NCBI GenBank assembly: GCA_016713785.1
Contig: JADJOM010000002.1
Span: 461,393-525,392, forward strand
Direction: 5' to 3'
DNA: 64,000 bases
Source of the DNA: Gemmatimonadota bacterium
GTDB lineage: Bacteria > Gemmatimonadota > Gemmatimonadetes > Gemmatimonadales > GWC2-71-9
Under the pieces are notes generated by a model. That model searched no databases and was not told the origin of the DNA. It saw nothing but the letters and a program-made list of their open reading frames with translations. Made by a program: the position numbers and the translations under genes. This document shows positions 3,483 to 44,567 of this stretch, piece after piece. The first letter of the stretch is position 1; each line of letters starts with the position of its first letter.

Positions 3483-6400
3483 GACCGCGGGTCGTCGAGG
3501 CAGCGGCGCACGGCCTGCGCCAGGTCGGCCGCGGCGTAGGGCTTCTGCAGCAGCTGCCGGCCCGCGTCGAGCTGCAGCAGCCGGTCCACGACGTCGGGGC
3601 TGTAGCCGCTCGAATAGAGCACCCGCAGCCCGGGTGCGCGCGCGAGCAGCGCCTCGGCCAGCTGCTTCCCGGACGCCCCGCCCGGCATGATCATGTCGGT
3701 GAGCAGCAGGTCCACGCCGCCCCCGCGGGCTTCCCAGAGCTCCAGGGCGCTCGCCGCCGAGTCCGCCTCCAGGACGCGGTACCCGTAGTGCTCGAGGGCC
3801 GTCCGGCTCACGGCCCGCACCGCCGGCTCATCCTCCACCAGCAGGATGGTCTCATGGCCGCCCCGAATCGGCGGCGGCGCGGGCGGAAGCTCCGGCTGTG
3901 GCGCCACTCCCTTGAGGGCGGGGAGGTAGGCGCGAAACACCGTCCCCGCGCCGACGGCGCTCTCCACCTCGATCCAGCCGTGGTGCTGCTGCACGATGCC
4001 GAACACCGTGGCGAGCCCAAGCCCGGTGCCCCGGCCCACTTCCTTCGTGGTGAAGAACGGCTCGAAGATCCGTGGCAGCGCCTCCGGCTGGATGCCGCAC
4101 CCGGTGTCCCTGACGGTCAGGCAGACATGCGGGCCGGGGTCGCACCCGGGGTGGAGCGAGGCGCGTTCCCCGTCGACGACGATCGCGTCGAGGCTCACCG
4201 AGAGCTGGCCTCCCTGCGGCATCGCGTCACGGGCGTTGATGGCCAGGTTCATCAGCACCTGTTCCATCATCCCGGGATCGGCATCCACCAGCGGCAGCCC
4301 CGGGGCGAACCGGGTTGCCAGCGCCACGTCCTCGCCCAGCACCCGCCGCAGCAGCTTGGTGGTGTTGCCCAGGGCCTCGCCGAGGTCGAGCGGGACCGGC
4401 CGGCTCACCTGCCGGCGGCTGAAGGTGAGCAGCTGACGGGTGAGATTGGACGCGCGCTCGGTGGCGGCGAGGATCTCCCGGATGCCGTCGCGGACCTCTG
4501 CGGGTTCCGTCGTCTCCTCCAGCAGCAGGGTCGATTGCATCTGGATGACGGCGAGCATGTTGTTGAAGTCGTGCGCGATGCCACCGGCCAGCTGCCCCAC
4601 CGCCTCCATCTTCTGCGCCTGCCGCAGCTGCTCCTCCAGGCGGTGCCGGACCGTGATATCCTCCGCCACGCCCGCGATGCGGTACACCCGTCCCGCGGCG
4701 TCCCGGATGGGAAAGGCGCGATCGTGGATCCAGGCCACCGCGCCCTCGCGCAGGATCCGGTACTCGATGTCGTACCCGCCGGCCACCTGTTCCGGCAGCG
4801 CGGACGTCACCCGGGTCCGGTCGTCCGGGTGGACCAGCGCGAGCCACGACTGCGGATCGGCATGGAGGGTCTCGCACGGCCGGCCGAAGACGCGGGCGTA
4901 CGCCGGGCTCACGTAGACGAACTCCCGCTTGGAGGCGTCCGTCAGCCAGAAGACCTCGTCGATCGTCTCGGTGACCTGCCGGAACCGCTGTTCGCTGCCC
5001 CGGAAGTCGGCCTCGGCCCGCTTCTGCGCCGTGATGTCCCGCGCCACCGCCAGCACGGTGCTCGCCTCGCCCTGGTCATCCTTCTCAGGGACGAGCCGGA
5101 CGTTGAAGTCATGCGGCCCGTCGGGTAGCGGGAGCGTTACCTCCGTCTCCACCGGCACGCCGCCGGTGGACGCCGCGGCGATGGTCGTCCGGAGCGAGCG
5201 GTACAGCTCCTCGCTGCCCTGGCCGGTCACGCTGCCGAGCGAGCGCCCGAGGTGCGCCGCCACCGGCACGCCGGTGAGGCGCTCGAAGGCCGCGTTGGCG
5301 TAGAGGTACCGCCCGCTGCGGTCAAAGCGCAGGATGACGTCGGGCGAGTGCTCCGCCAGCGTCCGCAGCTGCCGCTCGGTTTCCTTGAGCGCGGTAATGT
5401 CGCGCGCGAGGCCGAGCACGGTGGCGACCTGTCCCTGGTCATCCCGCTCGGGCGCGAGTCGGAGCTGGACCAGCCGCGGCCCATGGATGGTATGGAGGGG
5501 GTGCTCCACCGTCTGGGCCTCGCCGGTGGCGAAGACCTCCAGGATCGCCTGGGAGACCTGGGCGAGGGCGGGGCCGGCCTCGACATGGTGCCCCGACCCG
5601 AACCCGCCGGCGAGCAGGTCCTCCACGGACTTTCCCTGGGCCGCGGCGAAGGCCGGGTTGACGAACACCCGGTTCAGGTTGCGGTCCCACCGGACCAGCA
5701 GGTCAGGGGTATTCTCGACCAGGGTACGGAAGCTCCGCTCCCGCGTCCGCAGCTCGGCTTCGGCGGCCCTGCGCTCCGAGATGTCGCGCACGATGGCCAT
5801 GTTGTACGCGCGGCCCTCGAACTCGAAGTAGTTCCCGGTTACTTCCACCGGCGTGATCCGGCCGCCACGGGTCCGATGGACGGTCTCGATCGTCATCTGC
5901 CGCACCCGCTGGATCTCCGGCAGGAACGCCGCCCACTGCTCCGGGGTCCATTCGGGATCGATATCGAACACCCCCATGCCGCCGGTCAGCTCCGCTTTCG
6001 TAAAGCCCAGAGCCCCGGCGGCGCCTTCGTTGACGTAGCTGAAGCGGGGGGAGTCCCCTTCCATCAGGTAGATCCCCTCCCCGATGTGATCGAGGGCGTA
6101 ATTGAGCAGGTACAACTGGCGCTCGGCCGTCTTGCGATCCTCGAGGTTGGTCGCGATCCCCGGCACGCTCACCACCGTGCCGCGGGCATCCCGCTCCGGC
6201 ACATGCCGGACCTCGAAGTGCCGGGGCCCCTCCGGCGTCCGGAAGCTGACCTCCAGCCGCTCGGCGGGGCCCCCCGCGGCGACGCGCGCCAGACTGGCCT
6301 GCAGCGCCTCATCTTCTTCAGGGCAGTTGCAGATGTGGAGTTCGACCGGCGTACGACCCAGGATGGCCTCGGTCCCCTGGCCCATGCTCCGGCCAACCGA

Positions 6401-21222: not shown

Positions 21223-23928
21223 GTGTGGGCCCGGCTGTGGAGCGAAGCGCGCTATCGCGCCCGCGCGGTCTTCCGCCGCGAGGCGCTGGAGCGGGAGCTC
21301 GACGAGGAGCTGCGCTTCCACCTGGAGCAGGAGGCGGCCCGCCACCGCGCCGCGGGGCTTCCCGCGGCCGAGGCCATGCGCCAGGCCCGGCTGGCCTTCG
21401 GGGGCCTGGAGGTGGTCAAGGAGCAGACCCGCGACGGCCGCGGCGTCCGCTGGCTGGACCGGGCGGGCCAGGACCTCCGCTACGCCGTGCGCGCGCTCCG
21501 GCGCACCCCCGGCTTCACCGTCGCGGTGATCGCCACGCTGGGGCTCGGCGTCGGGATCAACGCGGCGATGTTCGGCATCGTGGACCGGCTGCTCTTCCGC
21601 GCGCCACCCCTGCTGCGCGACCCTGCCCGGGTACACCGGGTCTACCTCCAGTGGCACAACCGGAACGGGCTGGCCACCGGCGCGATGATGGGGTACGCCA
21701 GCTACCTCGACTTCCGGCGCGCCACCACCCAGTTCGATGCCCTGGCGGGATACAGCGTGCGGTCCCTCCCGGTCGGCTCCGGTCCGGCGAGCGCGGAGCT
21801 GCCGGTCGGCGTGATCTCGGCAACGCTCTTCGACTTCTTCGACGCCGCGCCGGTGCTCGGGCGGTTCTTCACCGCGGCGGAGGATACGGTGCCGCTCGGT
21901 GCCCAGGTGGCGGTGCTGAGCCATGGCTTCTGGCAGGCCCGCTACGGGGGGCGCCCGGACGCGCTCGGGCAGGTGCTGCGGGTCGGGACCGCCGCGTACA
22001 CGATCATCGGTGTCGCCCCGCGGGGCTTCGAGGGGATCAGCGACGAGGGCCCGCCCGCCCTCTTCATCCCGATCACCGCCTACGCGGGCGTCTTTCGCGC
22101 CGGGCCCAACGTGGCCAACTACTACACCCGCTACAATTGGAGCTGGATGCAGCTGGTGGTGCGCCGGAAGCCCGGCGTCACCCGGGCCGCGGCGGAGGCG
22201 GACCTGAGCCGGGCCCAGCGGCAGAGCTATGAGGCCCAGCGGGCCATCAGCCCCGGGATGACCGCCCCGGAGATCGCCCGGCCGGCGGCACTCGCGGGCC
22301 CGGTGCAGGCCGAGCGGGGCCCCAACCAGAGCACCGTGACCCGGGTGGCCACCTGGGTGAGCGGGGTGGCGCTGATCGTGCTCCTCATCGCCTGCGCCAA
22401 CGTGGCCAACCTCATGCTCGCGCGCGCAGTCCGCCGCCGCCGCGAGATCGCGGTACGGCTCGCGCTCGGCGTGAGCCGCGGCCGGTTGTTCGGGCAGCTG
22501 CTCACCGAGAGCCTGCTCCTCGCCGGCGCCGGCGCGGTGGTCGGCCTGCTGCTGGCCCGCACCGGCGGGGCCCTCCTGCGCGCGCTGTTCCTGCCCGCGA
22601 ACGTCGCGGCGGGGACCCTCGCCGATCCGCGCACCGCGGCGTTCGTCCTGGCCGTCGCGGCACTCGCCGGCGGCCTGACCGGGCTGGCGCCCCTGCTCCA
22701 GGCCCGTCGCACCGACCTGGTCGAGGCGCTCAAGTCCGGCGCCCGGGACGGCGGCTACCGGCGCTCCCGCCTCCGCACCGGCCTGCTGGCGCTCCAGGCT
22801 GCCCTGTCCGTGGTGCTGCTGGTCGGCGCCGCGCTGTTCGTGCAGAGCCTCCGCAACGTCCGCGCGCTCCGCCTCGGGTACGACGTCGATCCGGTGGTGT
22901 ACATCTACCCTGAGCAGCGCGGGGCCCGGCTCGCCGACGCCGAGGCCGCGGCGCTGCGGTTGCGGCTGCTCGAGTCCGCCCGCGCGGTGCCCGGGGTCGA
23001 GTCGGCCGCGCTGGGCCTGACGGTGCCGTTCTGGGATACCTGGAACGACAACCTCTTCGTGGCGGGGATCGACTCGGTGGAGCGGCTGGGGAGCTTCACC
23101 ATCCAGGCCGGCTCGCCGGAGTTCTTCGCCACCCTCGGCACCCGCATCCTCCGGGGCCGCGGGTTCACCGCGGAGGACCGCGCCGGGGCGCCGCTCGTGG
23201 CGGTGGTGAGCCAGGCGATGGCCGGCACGCTCTGGCCCGGCCGCGAGGCCCTCGGGGAGTGCTTCCGGATCGGCGCGGACACGGTCCCCTGCACCACCGT
23301 CGTGGGCATTGCCGAGGACATCCACCAGAACAGCGTCACCACCGACCGGGGCCTGAGCTACTACCTCCCGATCGCGCAGTTCCACCCCGAGGCGGCGGTC
23401 ATCTTTGCCCGGGGGCGGGGGCAGGGCCGCGAGGTGCGGGAGGTGCTCCGCCAGACCCTGCAGCCCGAGATGCCCGGCGAGGGCTACGTCAACGTGACCC
23501 CGCTGCGCGACATCGTGGATCCCGAGCTCCGCTCCTGGCAGCTCGGGGCCACGATGTTCGTGGCCCTCGGCGGACTGGCACTGGTGCTCGCGGCGGTCGG
23601 CCTCTACGGGGTGATGGCCTACGACGTGGCCCAGCGCGCCCACGAGCTCGGGGTGCGGATGGCGCTCGGCGCGCGGGCGCCGGACGTGGTACGGATGGTG
23701 GTGGGTGACGGGATGCGGATCGCCTTCGCCGGGGTGGCGGTGGGGAGCCTCATCGCCCTCTGGTCGGGGCGGTGGCTGGCGCCGCTCCTGTTCGAGCAGT
23801 CCCCCGCCGATCCCGTGGTGTTCGGCGTCGTCGCCGGGGTCCTGCTGCTGGTGGCGGCCCTGGCCACCGCCATCCCGGCGCTGCGCGCCACGCGGGTCAG
23901 CCCCACCGTGGCGCTCCGCACGGAGTAG
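21223..23928 (+). CDS. ADOP-family duplicated FtsX/MacB-like permease (no ATPase partner)
   Basis: 901 aa with a GTG start 3 nt after the PadR stop. N-terminal cytoplasmic helix (LDEELRFHLEQ), then two MacB-periplasmic plus FtsX four-helix modules. Confidence 0.85.
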   Translation: MWARLWSEARYRARAVFRREALERELDEELRFHLEQEAARHRAAGLPAAEAMRQARLAFGGLEVVKEQTRDGRGVRWLDRAGQDLRYAVRALRRTPGFTVAVIATLGLGVGINAAMFGIVDRLLFRAPPLLRDPARVHRVYLQWHNRNGLATGAMMGYASYLDFRRATTQFDALAGYSVRSLPVGSGPASAELPVGVISATLFDFFDAAPVLGRFFTAAEDTVPLGAQVAVLSHGFWQARYGGRPDALGQVLRVGTAAYTIIGVAPRGFEGISDEGPPALFIPITAYAGVFRAGPNVANYYTRYNWSWMQLVVRRKPGVTRAAAEADLSRAQRQSYEAQRAISPGMTAPEIARPAALAGPVQAERGPNQSTVTRVATWVSGVALIVLLIACANVANLMLARAVRRRREIAVRLALGVSRGRLFGQLLTESLLLAGAGAVVGLLLARTGGALLRALFLPANVAAGTLADPRTAAFVLAVAALAGGLTGLAPLLQARRTDLVEALKSGARDGGYRRSRLRTGLLALQAALSVVLLVGAALFVQSLRNVRALRLGYDVDPVVYIYPEQRGARLADAEAAALRLRLLESARAVPGVESAALGLTVPFWDTWNDNLFVAGIDSVERLGSFTIQAGSPEFFATLGTRILRGRGFTAEDRAGAPLVAVVSQAMAGTLWPGREALGECFRIGADTVPCTTVVGIAEDIHQNSVTTDRGLSYYLPIAQFHPEAAVIFARGRGQGREVREVLRQTLQPEMPGEGYVNVTPLRDIVDPELRSWQLGATMFVALGGLALVLAAVGLYGVMAYDVAQRAHELGVRMALGARAPDVVRMVVGDGMRIAFAGVAVGSLIALWSGRWLAPLLFEQSPADPVVFGVVAGVLLLVAALATAIPALRATRVSPTVALRTE

Positions 23929-35215: not shown

Positions 35216-35307
35216 CGGGTGTACGCTACCACCGCCCCGTCAACCACCCGTCAACTCCGGTGCCGGCATGCGGTTAGGCAGGCGGACCCCGGTCCCGGAA
35301 GGCAGCA

Positions 35308-35333
35308 CGGGGTGGGCCGCATGGCCCACCCCG
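35308..35333 (-). terminator. hairpin downstream of ahcY
   Basis: CGGGGTGGGCC-gcat-GGCCCACCCCG, a perfect 11-bp stem 29 nt after the ahcY stop. The U-tract is poor. Confidence 0.45.
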
Positions 35334-35361
35334 TCCGCCCGCCCTCCGGCCCAGGAGCGGC

Positions 35362-36880
<1,519 letters not shown>

Positions 36881-36933
36881 GCTCGGTTCCTTTCGTTGCC
36901 TGCCTGATGGTGGGACGCGGTCCCGCCGCGCCC

Positions 36934-37869
36934 CTACGCCTTGCTGCCGACCGCCGTGAAGACCATCGGACCCCGCGCGCCCGGATCGAGCGGCACGGGG
37001 CGATAACACCGGAGGGTGAGACCCGCCTGCGCCAGCCACTCCGCCAGCTGCCCCTCGCCCACCCCCTGCCACAGGTGGCCTAGCGTCTGCCGGTACTCCG
37101 CCCGCTCATGGGGCATCAGGTCCGTGAGCAGCAGCCGCCCGCCGCTCCGGAGCGCCCGCGCCGCCTCGCGCAGCGCCAGCGCCGGCTCGGCCAGGTAGGG
37201 CAGGACCATCACCATGCACGCCACGTCCGCGGTGCCGTCCGCGATGGGGAGCGTCTCGAGGTCGCCCCGGCGGATCTCCACGTTGGGCAGCTCGCCCAGC
37301 CGGGCCCGGGCCGCGCGCAGCATCGCCGCCGAGCCATCCACCGCGATCACCTGCCGGACGAAGGGCGCCACCGCCTGGGTCAGGTGCCCGGTGCCGCAGC
37401 CCAGGTCGGCCACCACGGAGGCCGGGTCGAGCAGGCCGAGCAGCGGCAGCAGCTCGGTGCGGCCGCCGAAGAGCTCGCTGCGCATTCGGTCCCACTGCCC
37501 CGCGGCGGTGGCAAAGAACTCCTCCGACCGCGCCCGCCGCTCCGCCAGCACCCCGCGCAGCCGCTCGGCGTCGCGCAGCGCCGCCGGCGCGGACTCCACC
37601 TGGTCCCGCACCAGCTGCCACAGCTTGCGCGCCGCCGGCTCGAGGTCGGTGACCGGCATCCGGTACAGTCGGCTCGCGCCGTCGGCCCGGGAAAGGACCC
37701 ACCCATCGTCGGCCAGCACCTTGAGGTGCCGGCTCACCGTGCTCTGCGGCAGCTGTAGCGCCTCGCAGAGCTCCGACACCGTCAGCTCGTGCCGCTCCAG
37801 GACGAGGAGCAGCCGGTTGCGGGTAGTATCGGCCAAGGCCTGCAGCCGGGTGACGATGGTGGCGCCCAC
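36934..37869 (-). CDS. sahR: ArsR-type HTH fused to a class I SAM-methyltransferase-like domain (SahR-like regulator)
   Basis: 311 aa. The N-terminus ([41 protein letters not shown]) is an ArsR HTH. The C-terminus has MTase motif I (VADLGCGTG). It sits directly upstream of, and co-oriented with, ahcY. Confidence 0.7.
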
Positions 37870-37890
37870 GGAGCTCCTTGAAGCATCCTG

Positions 37891-37902
37891 TTATCCGGAT
37901 AA
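37891..37902. promoter_or_regulatory. perfect 12-bp palindrome TTATCCGGATAA, candidate autoregulatory operator
   Basis: Located 22 nt upstream of the sahR-like start codon, in a locally AT-richer stretch. Confidence 0.35.
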
Positions 37903-37972
37903 TCAAATGTCTCGGCGGTCCCTTGTCAACGTCCGACCCCCCACGGGAGCCCGGGCGGAATCCGCCAGGGTC

Positions 37973-38001
37973 TTGATTTAGTGTTGCTAAGACACTATTA
38001 T
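37973..38001 (+). promoter_or_regulatory. sigma70-like promoter candidate TTGATT-N17-TATTAT
   Basis: Read directly from the sequence. It lies about 33 nt upstream of ATG 38034, which has a GGAGGAG RBS. This is the only strongly AT-rich patch in the intergenic region. Confidence 0.4.
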
Positions 38002-38019
38002 GGTGTCCCATAAACACTA
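37979..38019. promoter_or_regulatory. two tandem 19-bp palindromes, TAGTGT-N7-ACACTA and TGGTGT-N7-ACACTA (candidate NrtR operators)
   Basis: Site 1 is 37979..37997 and site 2 is 38001..38019, with centres 22 bp apart. They overlap the -10 element and the probable transcription start. The core matches the GT-N7-AC signature reported for the NrtR family. Confidence 0.5.
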
Positions 38020-38033
38020 ATTCGGAGGAGACC

Positions 38034-38990
38034 ATGCTCGGGTACCTCAAGGCCGCTCCCACCACCTATGTACTCCACTACAGCGGGGGCCGGCTCCGCC
38101 GGGAAGGGCCCGGGCTGGCCTTCGCGTACCTCCTCCCCACCTCCACCATCGTCTCGGTGCCGCTCGCCAGCGCCGACCTGCCCTTCGCCTTCGCGGAGGT
38201 CACGGCGGACTTCCAGCAGGTCACCGTCCAGGGCCGGCTCACCTACCGGGTGGCGCGGCCCACGCAGCTGGCCGGGTTGCTGGACTACTCCATCCACCCC
38301 AACGGCGCCTACCGGAGCGACGATCCCGAGAAGCTCGGTGAACGGCTGGTGCAGGCGGCCCAGACCTTTGCCCGGGAGCAGCTGGAGGGCGCCTCCCTCC
38401 GGGAGGCGCTCGGGGCGGTGGACCGGCTGGGCACCCACGTGCTGGCCGGGCTCCGGACCGCCGACATCGTGGCCAGCCTGGGCGTCGAGATCCTCGACCT
38501 GGCCGTGACCTCCATCCGGCCCACGCCGGAGATGGCGCGGGCCCTCGAGGCGGAGGCGCGCGAGGCGCTGCAGCGGGAATCCGACCTCGCCATCTACACC
38601 CGCCGCAACGCGGCCGTGGAGCAGGAGCGGCTCATCAAGGAGAACGAGCTGAGCACCGAGAACGCCGTGGTCGAGAAGCAGCGGCAGATCCGCGAGACCC
38701 GCATGGCCGCCGACGTGGCGCTGGAGCAGCAGCGGGCCGAACTGATCGAACGCCGCGCCGCGAACGAGCGGAAGGACGCCGACACCAGGGCCTACGCCCT
38801 GACCGCCACGCTCGAACCGCTGCGCCAGACCGACTGGCGGACCCTGATGGCGGTGAACGCCAGCAGCGGCGATCCGCGGGCCATGCTCGCCCTGGCGTTC
38901 CGGGAGCTGGCGGAGAATGCCGGCAAGATCGGGCAGCTCAACGTGACGCCGGACCTGCTCAGCTCGCTGCTGGGACCGGAGCGCAAGTGA
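38034..38990 (+). CDS. SPFH/Band 7 domain protein without an N-terminal TM anchor
   Basis: 318 aa. SPFH core (GLAFAYLLPTSTIVSVPL..., ILDLAVTSIRPTPEMARALE) followed by a coiled-coil region rich in E/R/Q. Confidence 0.8.
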   Translation: MLGYLKAAPTTYVLHYSGGRLRREGPGLAFAYLLPTSTIVSVPLASADLPFAFAEVTADFQQVTVQGRLTYRVARPTQLAGLLDYSIHPNGAYRSDDPEKLGERLVQAAQTFAREQLEGASLREALGAVDRLGTHVLAGLRTADIVASLGVEILDLAVTSIRPTPEMARALEAEAREALQRESDLAIYTRRNAAVEQERLIKENELSTENAVVEKQRQIRETRMAADVALEQQRAELIERRAANERKDADTRAYALTATLEPLRQTDWRTLMAVNASSGDPRAMLALAFRELAENAGKIGQLNVTPDLLSSLLGPERK

Positions 38991-39926
38991 AGGCCGCCGA
39001 GCGGCTGGTCATCGTCACCCGCCGCACCCGGCTGGAGGAGCTCCTGGTGCGCTTCAACACCAGGAGCCAGGCCCGCTTCTTCCTGGAGCGCGGCGGGGCA
39101 GAGTATGCCGACTACGAGGCCGAGCATGAGACCTACCACCGGAGCCTCGACCAACTGCGCCGAGCCCTCGACCTGGGCCTGCCCCGGCAGTTCATCGACC
39201 GGACCCTGGCGCCGTCGTACCTCTTCCAGGCGCCGGACCTGGTGGTGACCGTGGGGCAGGACGGCCTGGTGGCCAACGTAGCCAAGTACGCCACCGGGAT
39301 CCCGATCGTGGCGGTGAACCCCGACCCCGCCCGCTTCGACGGGGTGCTGCTCCCCTTCAGCACCGCGGAGGCCGGGGCCGTGGTGCAGCGGGCGCTCGCG
39401 GGCTCGGCGCCGGTTCGGCGGGTCACCACTGGCGGAGGCGGTCCTGGCCGATGGGCAGCGACTGCTGGCGTTCAACGACCTGTTCGTCGGGGCGCGGAGC
39501 CACGTGTCGGCGCGCTACCGGCTGGAGGTGGGCGGGGCCACCGAGCTGCAGTCCTCCAGTGGCATCCTGGTGTCCACGGGGGCGGGCAGCACCGGCTGGA
39601 TGTCGTCGGTGTTCAACATGGCCGAAGGCGTCGCCTCCTTCACCGGCGGCGCGGCCGGCGCGCCGGTGCGGCTCGCGTGGGAGGATAGCCGGCTGCTGTT
39701 TGCGGTGCGGGAGCCGTTCCGCAGCCGCCAGTCGGGGGTGAGCGTGGTCGCGGGCCTGCTGCCGGCGGGCGAGCCGCTGCGGGTGGAGTCGCGGATGCCG
39801 GCCGGAGGCGTCATCTTCAGCGACGGCATGGAGAGCGATTGCCTTCCGTTCGACGCCGGCGCCATCGCGGAGATCCGCGCGGCCGCGCGGCACGCGCACC
39901 TGGTCACCCGGAACGAGGAGCCATGA
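38987..39926 (+). pseudogene. NAD kinase-fold (ATP-NAD kinase/DAGK superfamily) protein interrupted by a 1-nt insertion near 39428
   Basis: Frame 1 (38987...) gives ...DLVVTVGQDGLVANVAKY...VRRVT. The protein continues in the frame of ORF 39504..39926 from nt 39429 (LAEAVLADGQRLLAFNDLFVGARSH...ILVSTGAGSTGWMSS...). The GQDG, NDLFV and TGAGSTGW motifs parallel the NAD kinase GGDG, NE and TGSTAY motifs. Confidence 0.7.
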
Positions 39927-40591
39927 CCGACGCCAGGTTCACCGTGGACGTGGTGATCTTCACCATCCGGGAGCAGCGGCTCCAGGTGCTGCTGGTCCGC
40001 CGGGGGATCCCCCCGTTCCAGGGCGCCTGGGCCATCCCGGGCGGTTTCGTGCTCGACGACGAAGACCTCGAGTCCGCCGCGGCGCGGGAGCTCATGGAGG
40101 AAACCGGGGTCCGCGACGTCTACCTGGAGCAGCTCTACACCTTCGGCGATCCTGGCCGCGACCCGCGCGGGCGGGTGGTCACCGTGGCGTACTTCGCCCT
40201 GATCCGTTCCGACCAGCAGGTCGCCGCCGGCTCCGACGCCGCCGAGGCGCGCTGGTGGCCCGCCGACGCGCCGCCCCCGCTCGCCTTCGATCACGACCGC
40301 ATCCTGGCCTACGCCATCGAACGGCTGCGCAACAAGCTCGAGTACACCACGGTGGGCTTCCAGCTGCTGCCGGAGCGCTTCACCCTGGGCGAGCTGCAGG
40401 CCGTCTACGAGGCGGTCCTGGGCCGCCCGCTCGACAAGCGGAACTTCCGCCGCAAGCTCGAGCTGCTCGACATCCTGGTGCCCCTCGCCGAACACCGCAC
40501 CGCCGGCCGCGCGCGCCCCGCGCGGCTCTACCGCTTTGCCGCCGCCCGCTTCGAGAAGCTGCGCGACAAGGGCATCCTCTTCCCCTTCTGA
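39923..40591 (+). CDS. nrtR: Nudix hydrolase-domain transcriptional regulator, NrtR family
   Basis: 222 aa with ATGA overlap to the upstream gene. Intact Nudix box [25 protein letters not shown]-terminal winged-helix signature [58 protein letters not shown]...RPARLYRF. Confidence 0.8.
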
Positions 40592-41589
40592 TGACGCGCC
40601 CGCCCCATCACCGCCCCGGAGGCGGGTACCAGAACCCCTGGCCCGACTCCAACCCCCGCGGCTTCTCGCACCTGGTCCGGTGGTTCTTCGAGCGGAATTT
40701 CACCAACCGCCCCGCCCCCGATCCGCCCCGCACCGCCTTCGACGTGGCCGTGCCCGACTTCGGTCGCGCCGCCCCGGGCGGCTTCGCCGTCACCTGGATC
40801 GGGCACTCCACTGCGCTGCTGGAACTGGACGGCGTCACGGTGCTCACCGACCCGATCTTCGGCACCTACGCCTCCCCGCTGCCCACAGCCTCGCTCAAGC
40901 GCTGGGTGGACCCTCCGGTGTCGGTGGCGGCGCTGCCCCGCGTGGACCTGGTGCTCCTCTCCCACAATCACTACGACCACCTCGACGCGCCCACCGTGCG
41001 CGAGCTGGCCGCGCTCCAGCCGCACGCCACCTGGTGCACCCCGCACGGCAACGCCGAACTGCTGCGGACCCTCGGCGTCTCGCGCATCGAGGAGTTCGAC
41101 TGGTGGGAGGAGCGGGCAGTCGGCGCCGCGCGGGTGGGCTGCACCCCGGCCAAGCACTTCAGCGCCCGTGGGCTGCACGATCGCAGCCGGGCGCTGTGGG
41201 GCGGCTTCACGGTGGCGGTGGGGGGGCGGCGGGTCTACTTCGCGGGGGACACCGCCTACCACCCCGAGTTCGGGCGGGTGGGGGAGCGGCTCGGGCCCTT
41301 CGACCTCGTGCTGATGCCGGTGGGCGCCTACGAGCCGCGCTGGTTCATGCACGTGGTGCACGTCAATCCCGAGGAGGCGGTGCGCGCGCTCCGCGACCTC
41401 TCGGCCGGGAGCGCCACGGTGCCGCTGATGGTGCCGATCCACTGGGGCACCTTCAAGCTCACCGACGAGCCGATGGACGAACCGCCGCGCCGGGCCGCGG
41501 AGGCCTGGCGGGAGGCCGGGCTGCCGCCGCACCGGCTCTGCCAGCTGCGCCACGGCGAGACCCGCGTCTTCGCGCCCGGACCCCGCTGA
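40591..41589 (+). CDS. MBL-fold metallo-hydrolase (Lactamase_B_2, NAPE-PLD-like)
   Basis: 332 aa. The start overlaps the previous stop (TGATG). Motifs include HNHYDH, the N-terminal pattern GGYQNPWP, and WIGHSTALLE. Confidence 0.8.
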   Translation: MTRPPHHRPGGGYQNPWPDSNPRGFSHLVRWFFERNFTNRPAPDPPRTAFDVAVPDFGRAAPGGFAVTWIGHSTALLELDGVTVLTDPIFGTYASPLPTASLKRWVDPPVSVAALPRVDLVLLSHNHYDHLDAPTVRELAALQPHATWCTPHGNAELLRTLGVSRIEEFDWWEERAVGAARVGCTPAKHFSARGLHDRSRALWGGFTVAVGGRRVYFAGDTAYHPEFGRVGERLGPFDLVLMPVGAYEPRWFMHVVHVNPEEAVRALRDLSAGSATVPLMVPIHWGTFKLTDEPMDEPPRRAAEAWREAGLPPHRLCQLRHGETRVFAPGPR

Positions 41590-41593
41590 GCCT

Positions 41594-44221
41594 TCACTCC
41601 CGGCGCAGCGCCACCATCGGATCCACCCGGGAGGCGCGTCGGGCGGGCAGGTAGCTCGCCGCGAGGGCCACCAGCAGCAGCACCAGCGCGGCGGCGCCGA
41701 ACGCCAGCGGGTCGGTTGCGCCCACTCCGAAGAGCGAGGTGGCCAGCAGCCGACCCGCCGCCAGCGCGCCCGCGCCCCCCGCGAGCAATCCGGCGACGGT
41801 CACCAGCAGGCCCTGCCGGACCGTCATTCCCAGCACCTGCCGCGGCTCGGCGCCGAGCGCCATGCGCAGCCCGATCTCGTGCCGCCGCTGGGCCACCTCG
41901 CTGCTCAGCACGCCGTAGAGCCCGAGCGCCGCGAGCAGCAGCGCCGCCAGCGCAAAGACGCCGACCAGCCAGGTGCGGACCCGGGACGCCGCGCTGGCCC
42001 GCGCCAGCTGGCGCTCCAGCGGGAGGATCCCGTCGATGATCAGGTCCGGGTCGATCCGGCGGACCACGGCGCGCACGGCCGCGGTGAGCGCCGCCGGGTC
42101 GCCGCGGGTGAGCAGGGTCAGGGAGGCGAGCGGCCAGTAGGTGCTCCGGTACGAGAGGAACACCTCGGGGGGCTGGGCCGGCTGGTTGAGCTCCACCCGC
42201 ATGTCGCCCACCACGCCCACCACCTCGTGCCACGCCGGCGGCGCGCCGTCGGCCGGGGACAGGTCGAAGCTGATGCGCGACCCCACGGCGCGGGCCTCCG
42301 GCAGGTAGCGGCGGGCGAACTCCTGGTTCACCACCACCTCGCGCACCCGGCCCGCGTCGTCGTCGCGCCACATCCGGCCGGTGAGCACCGGCACCTCCAC
42401 CGTGGCGAAGTAGCCCTCGCTCACCGCGCGATACGCGATGCTCTCCTCCGCCGGCAGCGGCACCCGCGCGGCCGCCGGCTCGCCCAGGCGGATCGGGCGG
42501 CTCTGGGTCCCGCCCTCGAGCGGCAGCCGGTCGGCCAGCCCCACGCGGCGCACGCCGGGGAGCGCGGCGAGGTCGTCGAGCGCCTGGCGATAGAACCCGT
42601 GCAGCCGGGCCGCGTCGGTGTCCCACGGGAACGCCAGCTGCAGCACGAGGACCTGGCCGGGCACCACGCCGGTGGACACCCCGCGCATCTGGTACAGGCT
42701 CCGCGCCAGCAGCCCCGCCGAGACCAGGAGCACCATCGAGAGCGCCACCTGCACCACCACCAGCGCTCGGCGCGCGCGGGGGCGGCCGCCGGTGGTGCCA
42801 CGCCCGCCATCGCGCAGCGCGTCGTGGGTGCGCTCCGCGCGGGCGGCCTGCCACGCGGGCGCCAGGCCGAACAGCAGCCCGCATCCGACGGCCACGCCCG
42901 CCGCGAACAGCGCCACGCGCCAGTCCAGGGAGGCTTCGGCCAGCCGGGGCAGCTCCGCGGGAAGCACCCGGATCAGCACCGGCAGGCCGAGCCACGCCAC
43001 CAGCAGGCCGCCCAGCCCGCCGGCCAGCGCCAGCCAGCCGCTTTCCATGAGGTAGAGCCGGAGCAGGCTGCCGCGGCCGGCGCCGAGCGCCACCCGGATC
43101 GCGGCCTCGTGCCGTCGCTCCGCCGCGCGAGCCAGCAGGAGGCTCGCGATGTTCACGCAGGCGATCAGCAGCACCAGGAACACCGCCCCGAGCAGCAGCA
43201 GCAGCGGGGCCCGCGTCTCGGCCGTCTCCACCTCCTGCAGCGGGGCGAGGGTGGCGGTGAGGGCGGCGTCGGTGTCGGGGTAGCGTTCGCGGAAGCGCCG
43301 CGCGATCGCCGCCGCCTCCGCGTTGGCGGCGGCCAGCGTGGTGCCCTCCGCCAGCCGGCCGATGATCGTGAAGTAGTTCCCGCCGCCGCGCCCGTCCTCC
43401 TGGAACCCGCGCGGGGCGGGGCTCACGAAATCCTGCCCGTCGGGGTAGCGCGCCCCGGCGGCGAGCACGCCGGCGATGGTGTAGCTGGTGGCGCTCAGCG
43501 TCACCGCCTGCCCGACGATCCCGGCCTCCCCGCCGAAGCGCCGCTGCCACAGGCCATGGCTCAGCAGGGCCACCGGGGCCCCCTCGCCCCGCTCCTCCTC
43601 GGGCGTGAAGCCGCGCCCCATGGCCAGCTCGGCCCCGGTCAGCCCGAGCACCGGGCCGAAGGTCCGCAGCAGCGCGTAGCGCTCCGGCTCGCCGCGGCCG
43701 GTGAGCACCGTGGCCTCGCCGTAGAAGCCGGCGAGGTCGCGCACCCCGGTGAGCTCGCGCTGCCAGTCGCGGAACCGGGCGGGGTTGCCGCCGATCATGC
43801 TGCCGGCGCGCGCCTCGCGCAGCATCACCACCGCGGCGTGGTCCGGGATCGGCAGCGGCCGCAGCAGCACCGCGTGGACGATGCTGTAGATGGCGCTGGT
43901 GGCGCCGATACCGAGCGCCAGGGTGAGTACCGCCGTGAGCACCAGGCCCGGGCGGCGGCGCAGGCTCCGCAGCGCCTGCCCGGCGTCGCGGACCGCGGCG
44001 TCGAGCCACGCCACCACGTCCAGGTCGCGCGCCCGCTCCTGCAGCAGCGGCACGTTGCCGAACCGCCGCCGGGCGTCGGCCGCGGCCGCGTCGGGGGCCA
44101 TACCGGCGGCGAGGTTCTCCCGGGTCCGCTCCTCCACGTGGAAGGCGATCTCGTCCGAGAGGTCCTGCGCCACGCGGTCGCGGCGCCACAGGGAGCCGGC
44201 CAGCCGCTCGAGGAGTCCCAT
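41594..44221 (-). CDS. ADOP-family duplicated FtsX/MacB-like permease, second copy
   Basis: Start placed at ATG 44221, 1 nt after the PadR stop and analogous to copy 1; a TTG at 44242 is possible. Same architecture as 21223..23928 (LSDEIAFHVEE helix, two MacB-periplasmic plus FtsX modules). Confidence 0.85.
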   Translation of the reverse strand: MGLLERLAGSLWRRDRVAQDLSDEIAFHVEERTRENLAAGMAPDAAAADARRRFGNVPLLQERARDLDVVAWLDAAVRDAGQALRSLRRRPGLVLTAVLTLALGIGATSAIYSIVHAVLLRPLPIPDHAAVVMLREARAGSMIGGNPARFRDWQRELTGVRDLAGFYGEATVLTGRGEPERYALLRTFGPVLGLTGAELAMGRGFTPEEERGEGAPVALLSHGLWQRRFGGEAGIVGQAVTLSATSYTIAGVLAAGARYPDGQDFVSPAPRGFQEDGRGGGNYFTIIGRLAEGTTLAAANAEAAAIARRFRERYPDTDAALTATLAPLQEVETAETRAPLLLLLGAVFLVLLIACVNIASLLLARAAERRHEAAIRVALGAGRGSLLRLYLMESGWLALAGGLGGLLVAWLGLPVLIRVLPAELPRLAEASLDWRVALFAAGVAVGCGLLFGLAPAWQAARAERTHDALRDGGRGTTGGRPRARRALVVVQVALSMVLLVSAGLLARSLYQMRGVSTGVVPGQVLVLQLAFPWDTDAARLHGFYRQALDDLAALPGVRRVGLADRLPLEGGTQSRPIRLGEPAAARVPLPAEESIAYRAVSEGYFATVEVPVLTGRMWRDDDAGRVREVVVNQEFARRYLPEARAVGSRISFDLSPADGAPPAWHEVVGVVGDMRVELNQPAQPPEVFLSYRSTYWPLASLTLLTRGDPAALTAAVRAVVRRIDPDLIIDGILPLERQLARASAASRVRTWLVGVFALAALLLAALGLYGVLSSEVAQRRHEIGLRMALGAEPRQVLGMTVRQGLLVTVAGLLAGGAGALAAGRLLATSLFGVGATDPLAFGAAALVLLLVALAASYLPARRASRVDPMVALRRE

Positions 44222-44222
44222 G

Positions 44223-44567
44223 TCAGGCCACCGATCCGGCAAAGCGGAGCACGTGGCCCACCCCCGCGATCAGGCGCTCCCAGTTGTCCTGCTCCGCCGC
44301 CAGCTGCTTCCGCCCCAGCGCCGTGATGGCGTAGAAGCGCGCCCGCCGGTTGGTCTCGGTGAGCCCCCACTCGGAGCGGATCCACCCCTCCTGTTCCATC
44401 CGGTGCAGGGCGGGGTAGAGCGAACCCTCCTCCACCCGCAGCAGCTCCTGGGACACCCGCTGGATATGGGTGGTGATGGCGTACCCGTGCAGCCGCCCCC
44501 GCGCGAGGGTGCGCAGGACCAGCAGGGTCAGGGTGCCCTGCAGCACATCGGTGCGGGTACGGGCCAC
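44223..44567 (-). CDS. PadR family transcriptional regulator, second copy
   Basis: 114 aa. Motifs GTLTLLVLRTL...HGYAI...GSLYPALHRMEQEGWI...RFYAIT. Confidence 0.9.
   Translation of the reverse strand: MARTRTDVLQGTLTLLVLRTLARGRLHGYAITTHIQRVSQELLRVEEGSLYPALHRMEQEGWIRSEWGLTETNRRARFYAITALGRKQLAAEQDNWERLIAGVGHVLRFAGSVA

Follow-up and report, generated by a model that had tools for sequence, protein, structure and literature searches.

A 64-kb stretch of a Gemmatimonadota contig (JADJOM010000002.1; the window, ~72% G+C, with position numbers counted from its first letter) raises the question of what a Nudix-related transcriptional regulator, NrtR, controls there. Four consecutive genes on the + strand encode an SPFH protein, a protein resembling nicotinamide adenine dinucleotide (NAD) kinases, NrtR itself and a hydrolase of the metallo-beta-lactamase fold. 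An earlier note on this DNA took them for a four-gene module of a kind that no described NrtR regulon contains. Our analysis indicates that the first two genes very probably correspond to nrtX and nrtY, for which NrtR control was predicted in 2008. The locus as a whole is probably the Gemmatimonadota copy of the NrtR-controlled nrtX-nrtY module, arranged as one operon nrtX-nrtY-nrtR with a lineage-specific NAPE-PLD-like gene added. The window itself is an ordinary further case of this module in a new phylum, with a different gene order. What is new is the nature of the pair, an SPFH protein without a membrane anchor and a kinase-like protein nearest to mitochondrial NADK2, and an operator-promoter layout that is kept across phyla.

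Table 1 of Rodionov et al. 2008 (NAR 36:2047, PMC2330246) lists a predicted NrtR-regulated pair nrtX-nrtY of unknown function in Streptomyces, Kineococcus, Frankia, Proteus mirabilis and Hahella; the paper names neither protein families nor a function for the two genes. In that table, nrtR2 and nrtX-nrtY are separate units, each with its own operator, in Streptomyces; nrtR2 is divergent from nrtX-nrtY across the operator in Kineococcus and Frankia, and nrtR takes this position in P. mirabilis. The 4.08-Mb record of P. mirabilis holds a single NrtR homologue, divergent from an SPFH plus NADK-like pair with two palindromes between, and the window proteins are 39-46% identical to their P. mirabilis counterparts. 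Meanwhile, loci in Providencia and Rhizobium are annotated as a NUDIX gene divergent from an SPFH gene that is followed by a "sugar kinase" or hypothetical protein gene, and a Streptomyces plasmid carries the SPFH-kinase pair without an adjacent nrtR. Because the sole NrtR of P. mirabilis is divergent from the pair and the arrangements in Providencia, Rhizobium and Streptomyces match the 2008 list, there is little doubt, as far as gene order and similarity can tell, that nrtX is the SPFH gene and nrtY the kinase-like gene. The statement that described NrtR regulons hold no such genes is therefore not upheld. The window shares with the 2008 regulon a two-gene unit behind GT-N7-AC operators and its linkage to nrtR. 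It differs in that nrtR lies downstream inside the operon, whereas it is divergent or unlinked in the 2008 cases, and in the added NAPE-PLD-like gene; Gemmatimonadota lie outside the coverage of the 2008 paper. No later papers on nrtX-nrtY, or on NrtR or NAD kinase linked with SPFH, were found in the searchable literature.

The spread of the pair was assessed by a pattern scan of one genome per species, and neighbourhoods were taken from the best 80 loci. Relatives of gene 2 are present in at least 591 species genomes. An SPFH gene lies immediately 5' of the kinase gene, on the same strand, in 79 of the best 80 loci, which span more than ten phyla and include Acidobacteriota, Myxococcota, Planctomycetota, Bacteroidota, Spirochaetota, Elusimicrobiota, Melainabacteria, Bdellovibrionota, Nitrospirota and Gammaproteobacteria. 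Where nrtR is linked, it is found downstream of the pair in Gemmatimonadota, Acidobacteriota and Bdellovibrionales, and upstream in Bacteroidota and Elusimicrobiota. Clustering of the open reading frames that flank ~86 loci returned NrtR as the only recurrent neighbour, plus its antisense shadow frame. In view of the 79/80 linkage and the lack of any recurrent partner other than NrtR, the functional core is the SPFH-kinase pair, with NrtR as a frequent companion. The four-gene module put forward in the earlier note does not hold, since gene order is not conserved among the best 80 loci and only the pair is kept. The pair has stood in the literature since 2008 as a set of NrtR targets of unknown function; it occurs in at least ten phyla and, in some lineages, on plasmids. 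In addition, a 574-amino-acid protein of the representative library (P0160) combines a Band_7 domain (residues 16-197) with an NADK-like part (283-572) that lacks the first ~25 residues and reads GPDG; it could be a Rosetta-stone fusion of NrtX and NrtY or an artefact, and is a weak hint.

Mobile copies were also found. The NrtR of a Proteus chromosome (L088, NZ_OL790811.1) is 89.5% identical to those on plasmids of Moraxella osloensis and Acinetobacter lwoffii. In Proteus, the module is closely followed by tet(J), and small plasmids of Pasteurellaceae, Psychrobacter and Wohlfahrtiimonas carry truncated 3' pieces of the kinase gene. The plasmid copies, tet(J) and the fragments point to horizontal spread alongside tetracycline-resistance DNA.

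The case for NrtR control begins at the promoter. The G+C content drops to 0.60 at 37750-38049, compared with ~0.72 around it, directly before the four-gene run. This patch contains the only sigma-70-like site in 37700-41900, a near-consensus promoter on the + strand at 37973-38001 (9/12 matches; shuffles give 0.1) composed of the -35 hexamer TTGATT (37973-37978), a 17-bp spacer and the -10 hexamer TATTAT (37996-38001). Two NrtR-type operators lie on it. Operator 1 (37979-37997, TAGTGTTGCTAAGACACTA) is a perfect GT-N7-AC palindrome, TAGTGT-N7-ACACTA with 0 mismatches, and fills the spacer between -35 and -10; operator 2 (38001-38019, TGGTGTCCCATAAACACTA), TGGTGT-N7-ACACTA with 1 mismatch, lies 22 bp from operator 1 and over the expected transcription start. 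A Shine-Dalgarno sequence, GGAGGAG, can be read at 38024-38030 (+), ending 3 nt 5' of the ATG at 38034. The operators agree with the description of NrtR sites as ~21-bp palindromes with a GT-N7-AC core near regulated promoters (PMC2330246). They are the sole matches in 64 kb, where 0.06 would be expected by chance. As no further operator copy was found in the window, no further regulon members can be named there.

This layout is not peculiar to the window. A tandem pair of operators, 22 bp apart and at about -55 and -33 from the SPFH start, is present in many loci and phyla, even without an adjacent nrtR in Planctomycetia and Myxococcus xanthus. The order of -35, operator, -10, operator and Shine-Dalgarno sequence recurs in Planctomycetia, Acidobacteriota, Myxococcus and Proteus, and a TTGAC-type -35 occupies the equivalent position in other phyla. 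A strict rule, demanding a GT-N7-AC core and at least 6/7 complementary arm positions, was applied to the 150 nt before the SPFH gene. It picks up at least one site in 26 of 78 loci, and two sites in 14. Other parts of these loci yield a background of 0.011 sites per 150 nt, giving ~30-fold enrichment upstream of nrtX. The AT-rich patch and the two palindromes on the promoter, both pointed out in the earlier note, are thereby borne out, the palindromes being unique in 64 kb as well as conserved and enriched by phylogenetic footprinting. The half-site differs between lineages: TTAGTGTC in Gemmatimonadota, Acidobacteriota, Planctomycetia and some Myxococcota, TTAGAGTC in other Myxococcota (L034, L041, L051, L061, L063), TTTGTGTA in Bacteroidota (L054, L058, L069, L074, L076) and TTAGT-N11-ACTAA in Rhizobium (L090, L092). 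Such variation at constant position and spacing suggests that NrtR specificity may co-evolve with its sites. On a plasmid of Streptomyces yangpuensis (L091), a direct repeat, CGTCnCCTTGACGAnATGAAG in two copies at ~3880-3980 upstream of SPFH, replaces the GT-N7-AC palindromes and may be the different 'Actinobacteria-2b' motif of nrtR2. Overall, the comparative evidence for NrtR control of the operon is strong, and bears on binding itself indirectly.

The regulator gene, nrtR (39923-40591, +), encodes 222 amino acids. Its product matches the Pfam models NUDIX (82.6 bits, residues 7-129) and NrtR_WHD (PF21906; 91.4 bits over the full model, residues 145-205), has a Nudix box that fits Gx5Ex7REUxEExGU, and among solved structures matches Shewanella NrtR 3gz5 best, with an E value of 3.1e-45 (residues 6-205), so the proposed combination of an intact Nudix box and an NrtR winged helix stands. 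It reaches 188.1 bits with the NCBIfam NtrR equivalog (NF050029 TransRepNtr), below the cut-off of 400. By these scores gene 3 is a member of the NrtR family and not an equivalog of the curated NCBIfam group. Of 33 linked NrtRs, 26 retain an intact Nudix box; in the proteobacterial ones the box is degenerate. In the study that defined NrtR, ADP-ribose was its most effective anti-repressor in vitro (Rodionov et al. 2008, PMC2330246).

The product of nrtY (38987-39926, +; 312 amino acids after the correction described below) has GQDG, ND and SSSG..STGAGSTGW motifs and appears closest to mitochondrial NADK2, not to bacterial NadK, in both sequence profile and predicted structure. The profile of its family, which comprises 294 clusters at E <= 1e-30 in a library clustered at 50% identity, finds human mitochondrial NADK2 (7r4j, 7n29) with 51 bits and an E value of 6.6e-13 at 19-20% identity, compared with ~18 bits and ~5e-3 for bacterial NadK. 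The AlphaFold2 model (predicted local distance difference test, pLDDT, 92.7) has the two-domain NAD kinase fold. In Foldseek its top 50 matches are all NAD(H) kinases, NADK2 being the first (E 4e-20, template modelling score, TM, 0.74), and bacterial NadK/PpnK (e.g. 1u0t, 7mh7, 2an1) following at 1e-17 to 1e-18 with TM ~0.62. GQDG is invariant among close homologues and keeps the catalytic Asp (D92). D92 and the SSSG...GSTGW region are likewise invariant, and F162-N163-D164 (the NE/D motif) is invariant or close to it. Three motifs, GGDG among them, have been defined for NAD kinases (PMC8553519). In what would be conserved region II, SSSGILVSTGAGSTGW of NrtY aligns with KSSGLNLCTGTGSKAW of NADK2 and differs from the Gly-rich, TPTGSTAY-like bacterial consensus by D to S and Y to W; the Gly-rich region reads SSSG..STGAGSTGW in NrtY and SSG..CTGTGSKAW in NADK2. 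NADK2 (C5orf33) and plant NADK3 have in common with NrtY an N-terminal TR-x-E helical segment, the catalytic Asp, the NE/D motif and SSG...TG-GS-x-W. However, NADK2 has GGDG where NrtY has GQDG (GxDG in the family), and NrtY is bacterial and paired with an SPFH gene. Bacterial NadK/PpnK shares the two-domain fold with NrtY, but its N-terminal segment differs and NrtY lacks GGDG.

In the window, nrtY is not intact. The four genes lie at 38034-38990, 38987-39926, 39923-40591 and 40591-41589 and are joined by the stop/start overlaps GTGA (38987-38990), ATGA (39923-39926) and TGATG (40589-40593), with no intrinsic terminator found in 37700-41900. Of the four coupled, co-oriented open reading frames claimed earlier, the gene coordinates and all three junctions are confirmed, but gene 2 is not a single frame: it is split into frames 38987-39688 and 39504-39926 by a 1-nt insertion, an extra A at 39428 (+), after which nrtY continues in frame 0 instead of frame 2. 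Without this A, the gene encodes 312 amino acids that are 98-99% identical to intact 312-residue proteins of four database clusters, and the repaired junction, RVTLAEAVL, is the same as in P0001 and falls on the invariant columns T147, A149 and E150. Exactly two indels separate the window from a 99%-identical Gemmatimonadales contig (L002, GCA_016709265.1) over 12.9 kb, and the second, an extra G at 35675 (CCAGGGATC vs CCAGGATC in L002), splits the S-adenosylhomocysteine hydrolase gene ahcY (35240-37072, -). The intact relatives are 98-99% identical, and the only other indel likewise disrupts a housekeeping gene. We therefore regard the nrtY frameshift as most probably an error of assembly, and the pair of insertions suggests single-base insertion errors in the assembly. 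The extra A lies outside a simple homopolymer (CACCACTGG vs CACCCTGG), as might be expected if the operon were decaying in the source organism and nrtY were a true pseudogene; yet besides the fate of ahcY, no further substitutions hint at relaxed selection, and nrtY is intact in three independent near-identical contigs, so that decay seems unlikely to us. A programmed frameshift was rejected because the near-identical relatives simply lack the extra base.

The SPFH protein NrtX (38034-38990, +; 318 amino acids) matches Pfam Band_7 with 60.6 bits, and a sequence search against the PDB gave nothing useful. A simple hydropathy test predicts neither an N-terminal hydrophobic segment nor a transmembrane segment; by this test alone, the highest 19-residue Kyte-Doolittle mean is 1.56, at residue 143 within the domain. 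Gene 1 thus fits the anchorless SPFH protein that had been proposed. In the AlphaFold2 model (pLDDT 80.6), the SPFH domain is followed by a ~100-residue helix (165-264) and then by small helices at the C terminus; its Foldseek matches are HflK/C, stomatin, prohibitin, erlin, QmcA, flotillin and major vault protein (MVP). Like cage-forming SPFH proteins, NrtX combines the SPFH domain with a long wall helix and a cap region at the C terminus. In contrast to HflK/C, stomatin, QmcA and prohibitin, which typically have an N-terminal membrane anchor (transmembrane or hairpin), it has none, and its putative partner has a kinase fold and is neither NfeD nor an FtsH-type protease. In the vault, whose cage also holds the NAD-consuming PARP4, NAD+ and ADP are bound by the SPFH domain of MVP (PMC12280208). 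The MVP/PARP4 vault is a useful analogy for NrtX-NrtY, not evidence.

The most likely mechanism is that the operon for a dinucleotide 2'-kinase and its SPFH partner represses itself until ADP-ribose lifts the repression. NrtR dimers would block access to the promoter and so keep their own operon repressed. Consumption of NAD would let ADP-ribose or a close derivative build up and bind the Nudix domain, NrtR would leave the DNA, and transcription would follow. NrtY would then act as a kinase, its acceptor probably being the adenosine 2'-OH of NAD(H) or of a related adenine dinucleotide. The two genes are translationally coupled and almost never separated, and NrtX probably builds an SPFH ring or cage by which the kinase is held or regulated. 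Since the Nudix box is intact in the window, the Nudix domain of NrtR may also hydrolyse the inducer and so reset the switch.

Several observations weigh against this reading. An nrtR gene lies within 6 kb in 22 of the best 80 loci, so about three quarters have no adjacent nrtR, and many of these also have no recognisable operator. The frameshift in nrtY could be genuine, and the basis for a putative physical NrtX-NrtY complex is gene linkage and one possible fusion. Of the divergent NAD-kinase-like protein announced for gene 2, the GQDG motif is present and the fold was recovered in the model and in Foldseek, but Pfam NAD_kinase gives no match to it, and the best NCBIfam NAD kinase model scores 24.2 bits against a cut-off of 371. 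Among 150 representatives at 50% identity with a call, the second position of GxDG is Q, P, R or another residue in 149 and G once. The non-GGDG motif and the sub-threshold scores make the substrate, and even kinase activity, uncertain. NrtY might instead act on the signal itself or on another adenine nucleotide, for example by converting ADP-ribose to 2'-phospho-ADP-ribose, in which case the module would process or detoxify ADP-ribose and not synthesize the phosphorylated dinucleotide NADP(H). The family-wide loss of the second Gly and the low scores would suit a function apart from that of housekeeping NadK, the operon is under an ADP-ribose-type sensor whose catalytic box is kept in most linked copies (the 26 of 33 above), and 2'-phospho-ADP-ribose was tested as an NrtR-related metabolite in 2008 (PMC2330246). 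Set against this, residues of the NAD site appear to be kept in NrtY, both at the ND motif and in conserved region II with its NADK2-like W, and characterised poly(P)/ATP NAD kinases do not phosphorylate ADP-ribose (PMC8553519); we consider such a role rather doubtful.

A further difficulty for ADP-ribose-relieved autorepression is that the match of gene 3 to the Bacteroides arabinose regulator BtAraR (5bs6, E 7.5e-44) is almost as good as that to Shewanella NrtR. Gene 3 could then be an NrtR paralogue that senses another ligand, as BtAraR senses arabinose, and the link to NAD would be illusory, which would also agree with the NCBIfam score of 188 against 400. NrtR_WHD outscores AraR_C (91 vs 56.4 bits), however, the Nudix box is intact, and the regulated gene has an NAD-kinase fold and belongs to no sugar pathway, all of which make a different ligand quite improbable. 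The module might also be a stress or conflict system, for instance one that answers NAD depletion by phage-defence or toxin NADases, with the SPFH assembly as effector and the kinase as regulator. An inducer derived from NAD breakdown, the patchy distribution across phyla and the plasmid copies, including the NrtR shared at 89.5% identity between the Proteus chromosome and the Moraxella and Acinetobacter plasmids, would be compatible with this. On the other hand, no PADLOC model matches NrtX or NrtY, flanking-frame clustering gave no recurrent defence-type neighbours, and a mean column identity of ~70% is unlike that of fast-evolving conflict genes, so that we judge a conflict role very improbable. 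Anti-phage defence in particular was rejected: the metallo-beta-lactamase-fold protein has no PADLOC match either, and NrtR has only a weak generic Nudix match.

A bolder picture can also be drawn, which we offer tentatively and consider rather unlikely. NrtX and NrtY would make up a soluble vault-like SPFH cage, with an NADK2-type dinucleotide kinase enclosed or gated by it. ADP-ribose would switch the complex on upon NAD consumption, and the GxDG family would be the missing prokaryotic relative of the NADK2/NADK3 mitochondrial clade. The origin of the eukaryotic mitochondrial-clade NADK has been described as unknown (PMC6675116). What might be gained is another, inducible way of making NADP from NAD or a so far undescribed ADP-ribose-processing step, a first case of a soluble bacterial SPFH assembly whose enzymatic partner is defined, and a hint at the source of eukaryotic NADK2.

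The fourth gene (40591-41589, +; 332 amino acids) is the lineage-specific part of the operon. Its product scores 146.4 bits with Lactamase_B_2, carries HNHYDH, which fits the HxHxDH metal motif, and matches human NAPE-PLD (4qn9) with an E value of 1.1e-68 over residues 10-326, in accordance with the NAPE-PLD-like hydrolase foreseen in the earlier note. The near full-length match and the metal motif are common to both proteins; unlike human NAPE-PLD, the product of gene 4 is a bacterial, cytosolic-looking protein. The gene is linked in the closest three contigs only (L001-L003). Elsewhere the fourth gene is unrelated, being that of a 582-amino-acid protein in L004 and a methyltransferase gene in L007, or is absent. 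As a core part of the module the gene was rejected, given its linkage in these three contigs and its lack of recurrence in the flanking-frame clusters. The suggested membrane or lipid response finds no support beyond the presence of this lineage-specific gene.

The next gene 3' of the operon is convergent and encodes a MacB-like permease, ending at 41594. It is part of a region on the - strand (41594-44567) that comprises this MacB-like double-FtsX ATP-binding cassette permease (41594-44242) and a PadR-family regulator (44223-44567), and a 67%-identical paralogous stretch is located at 23577-23926. On the other side of the operon, a gene on the - strand at 36934-37869, directly upstream of ahcY, encodes a 311-amino-acid fusion of an ArsR-type helix-turn-helix and an S-adenosylmethionine-dependent methyltransferase, the Pfam domains being taken from the L001 orthologue. 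By its domains and position, this gene together with ahcY looks like a SahR-type regulator arrangement of the methionine/S-adenosylmethionine cycle.

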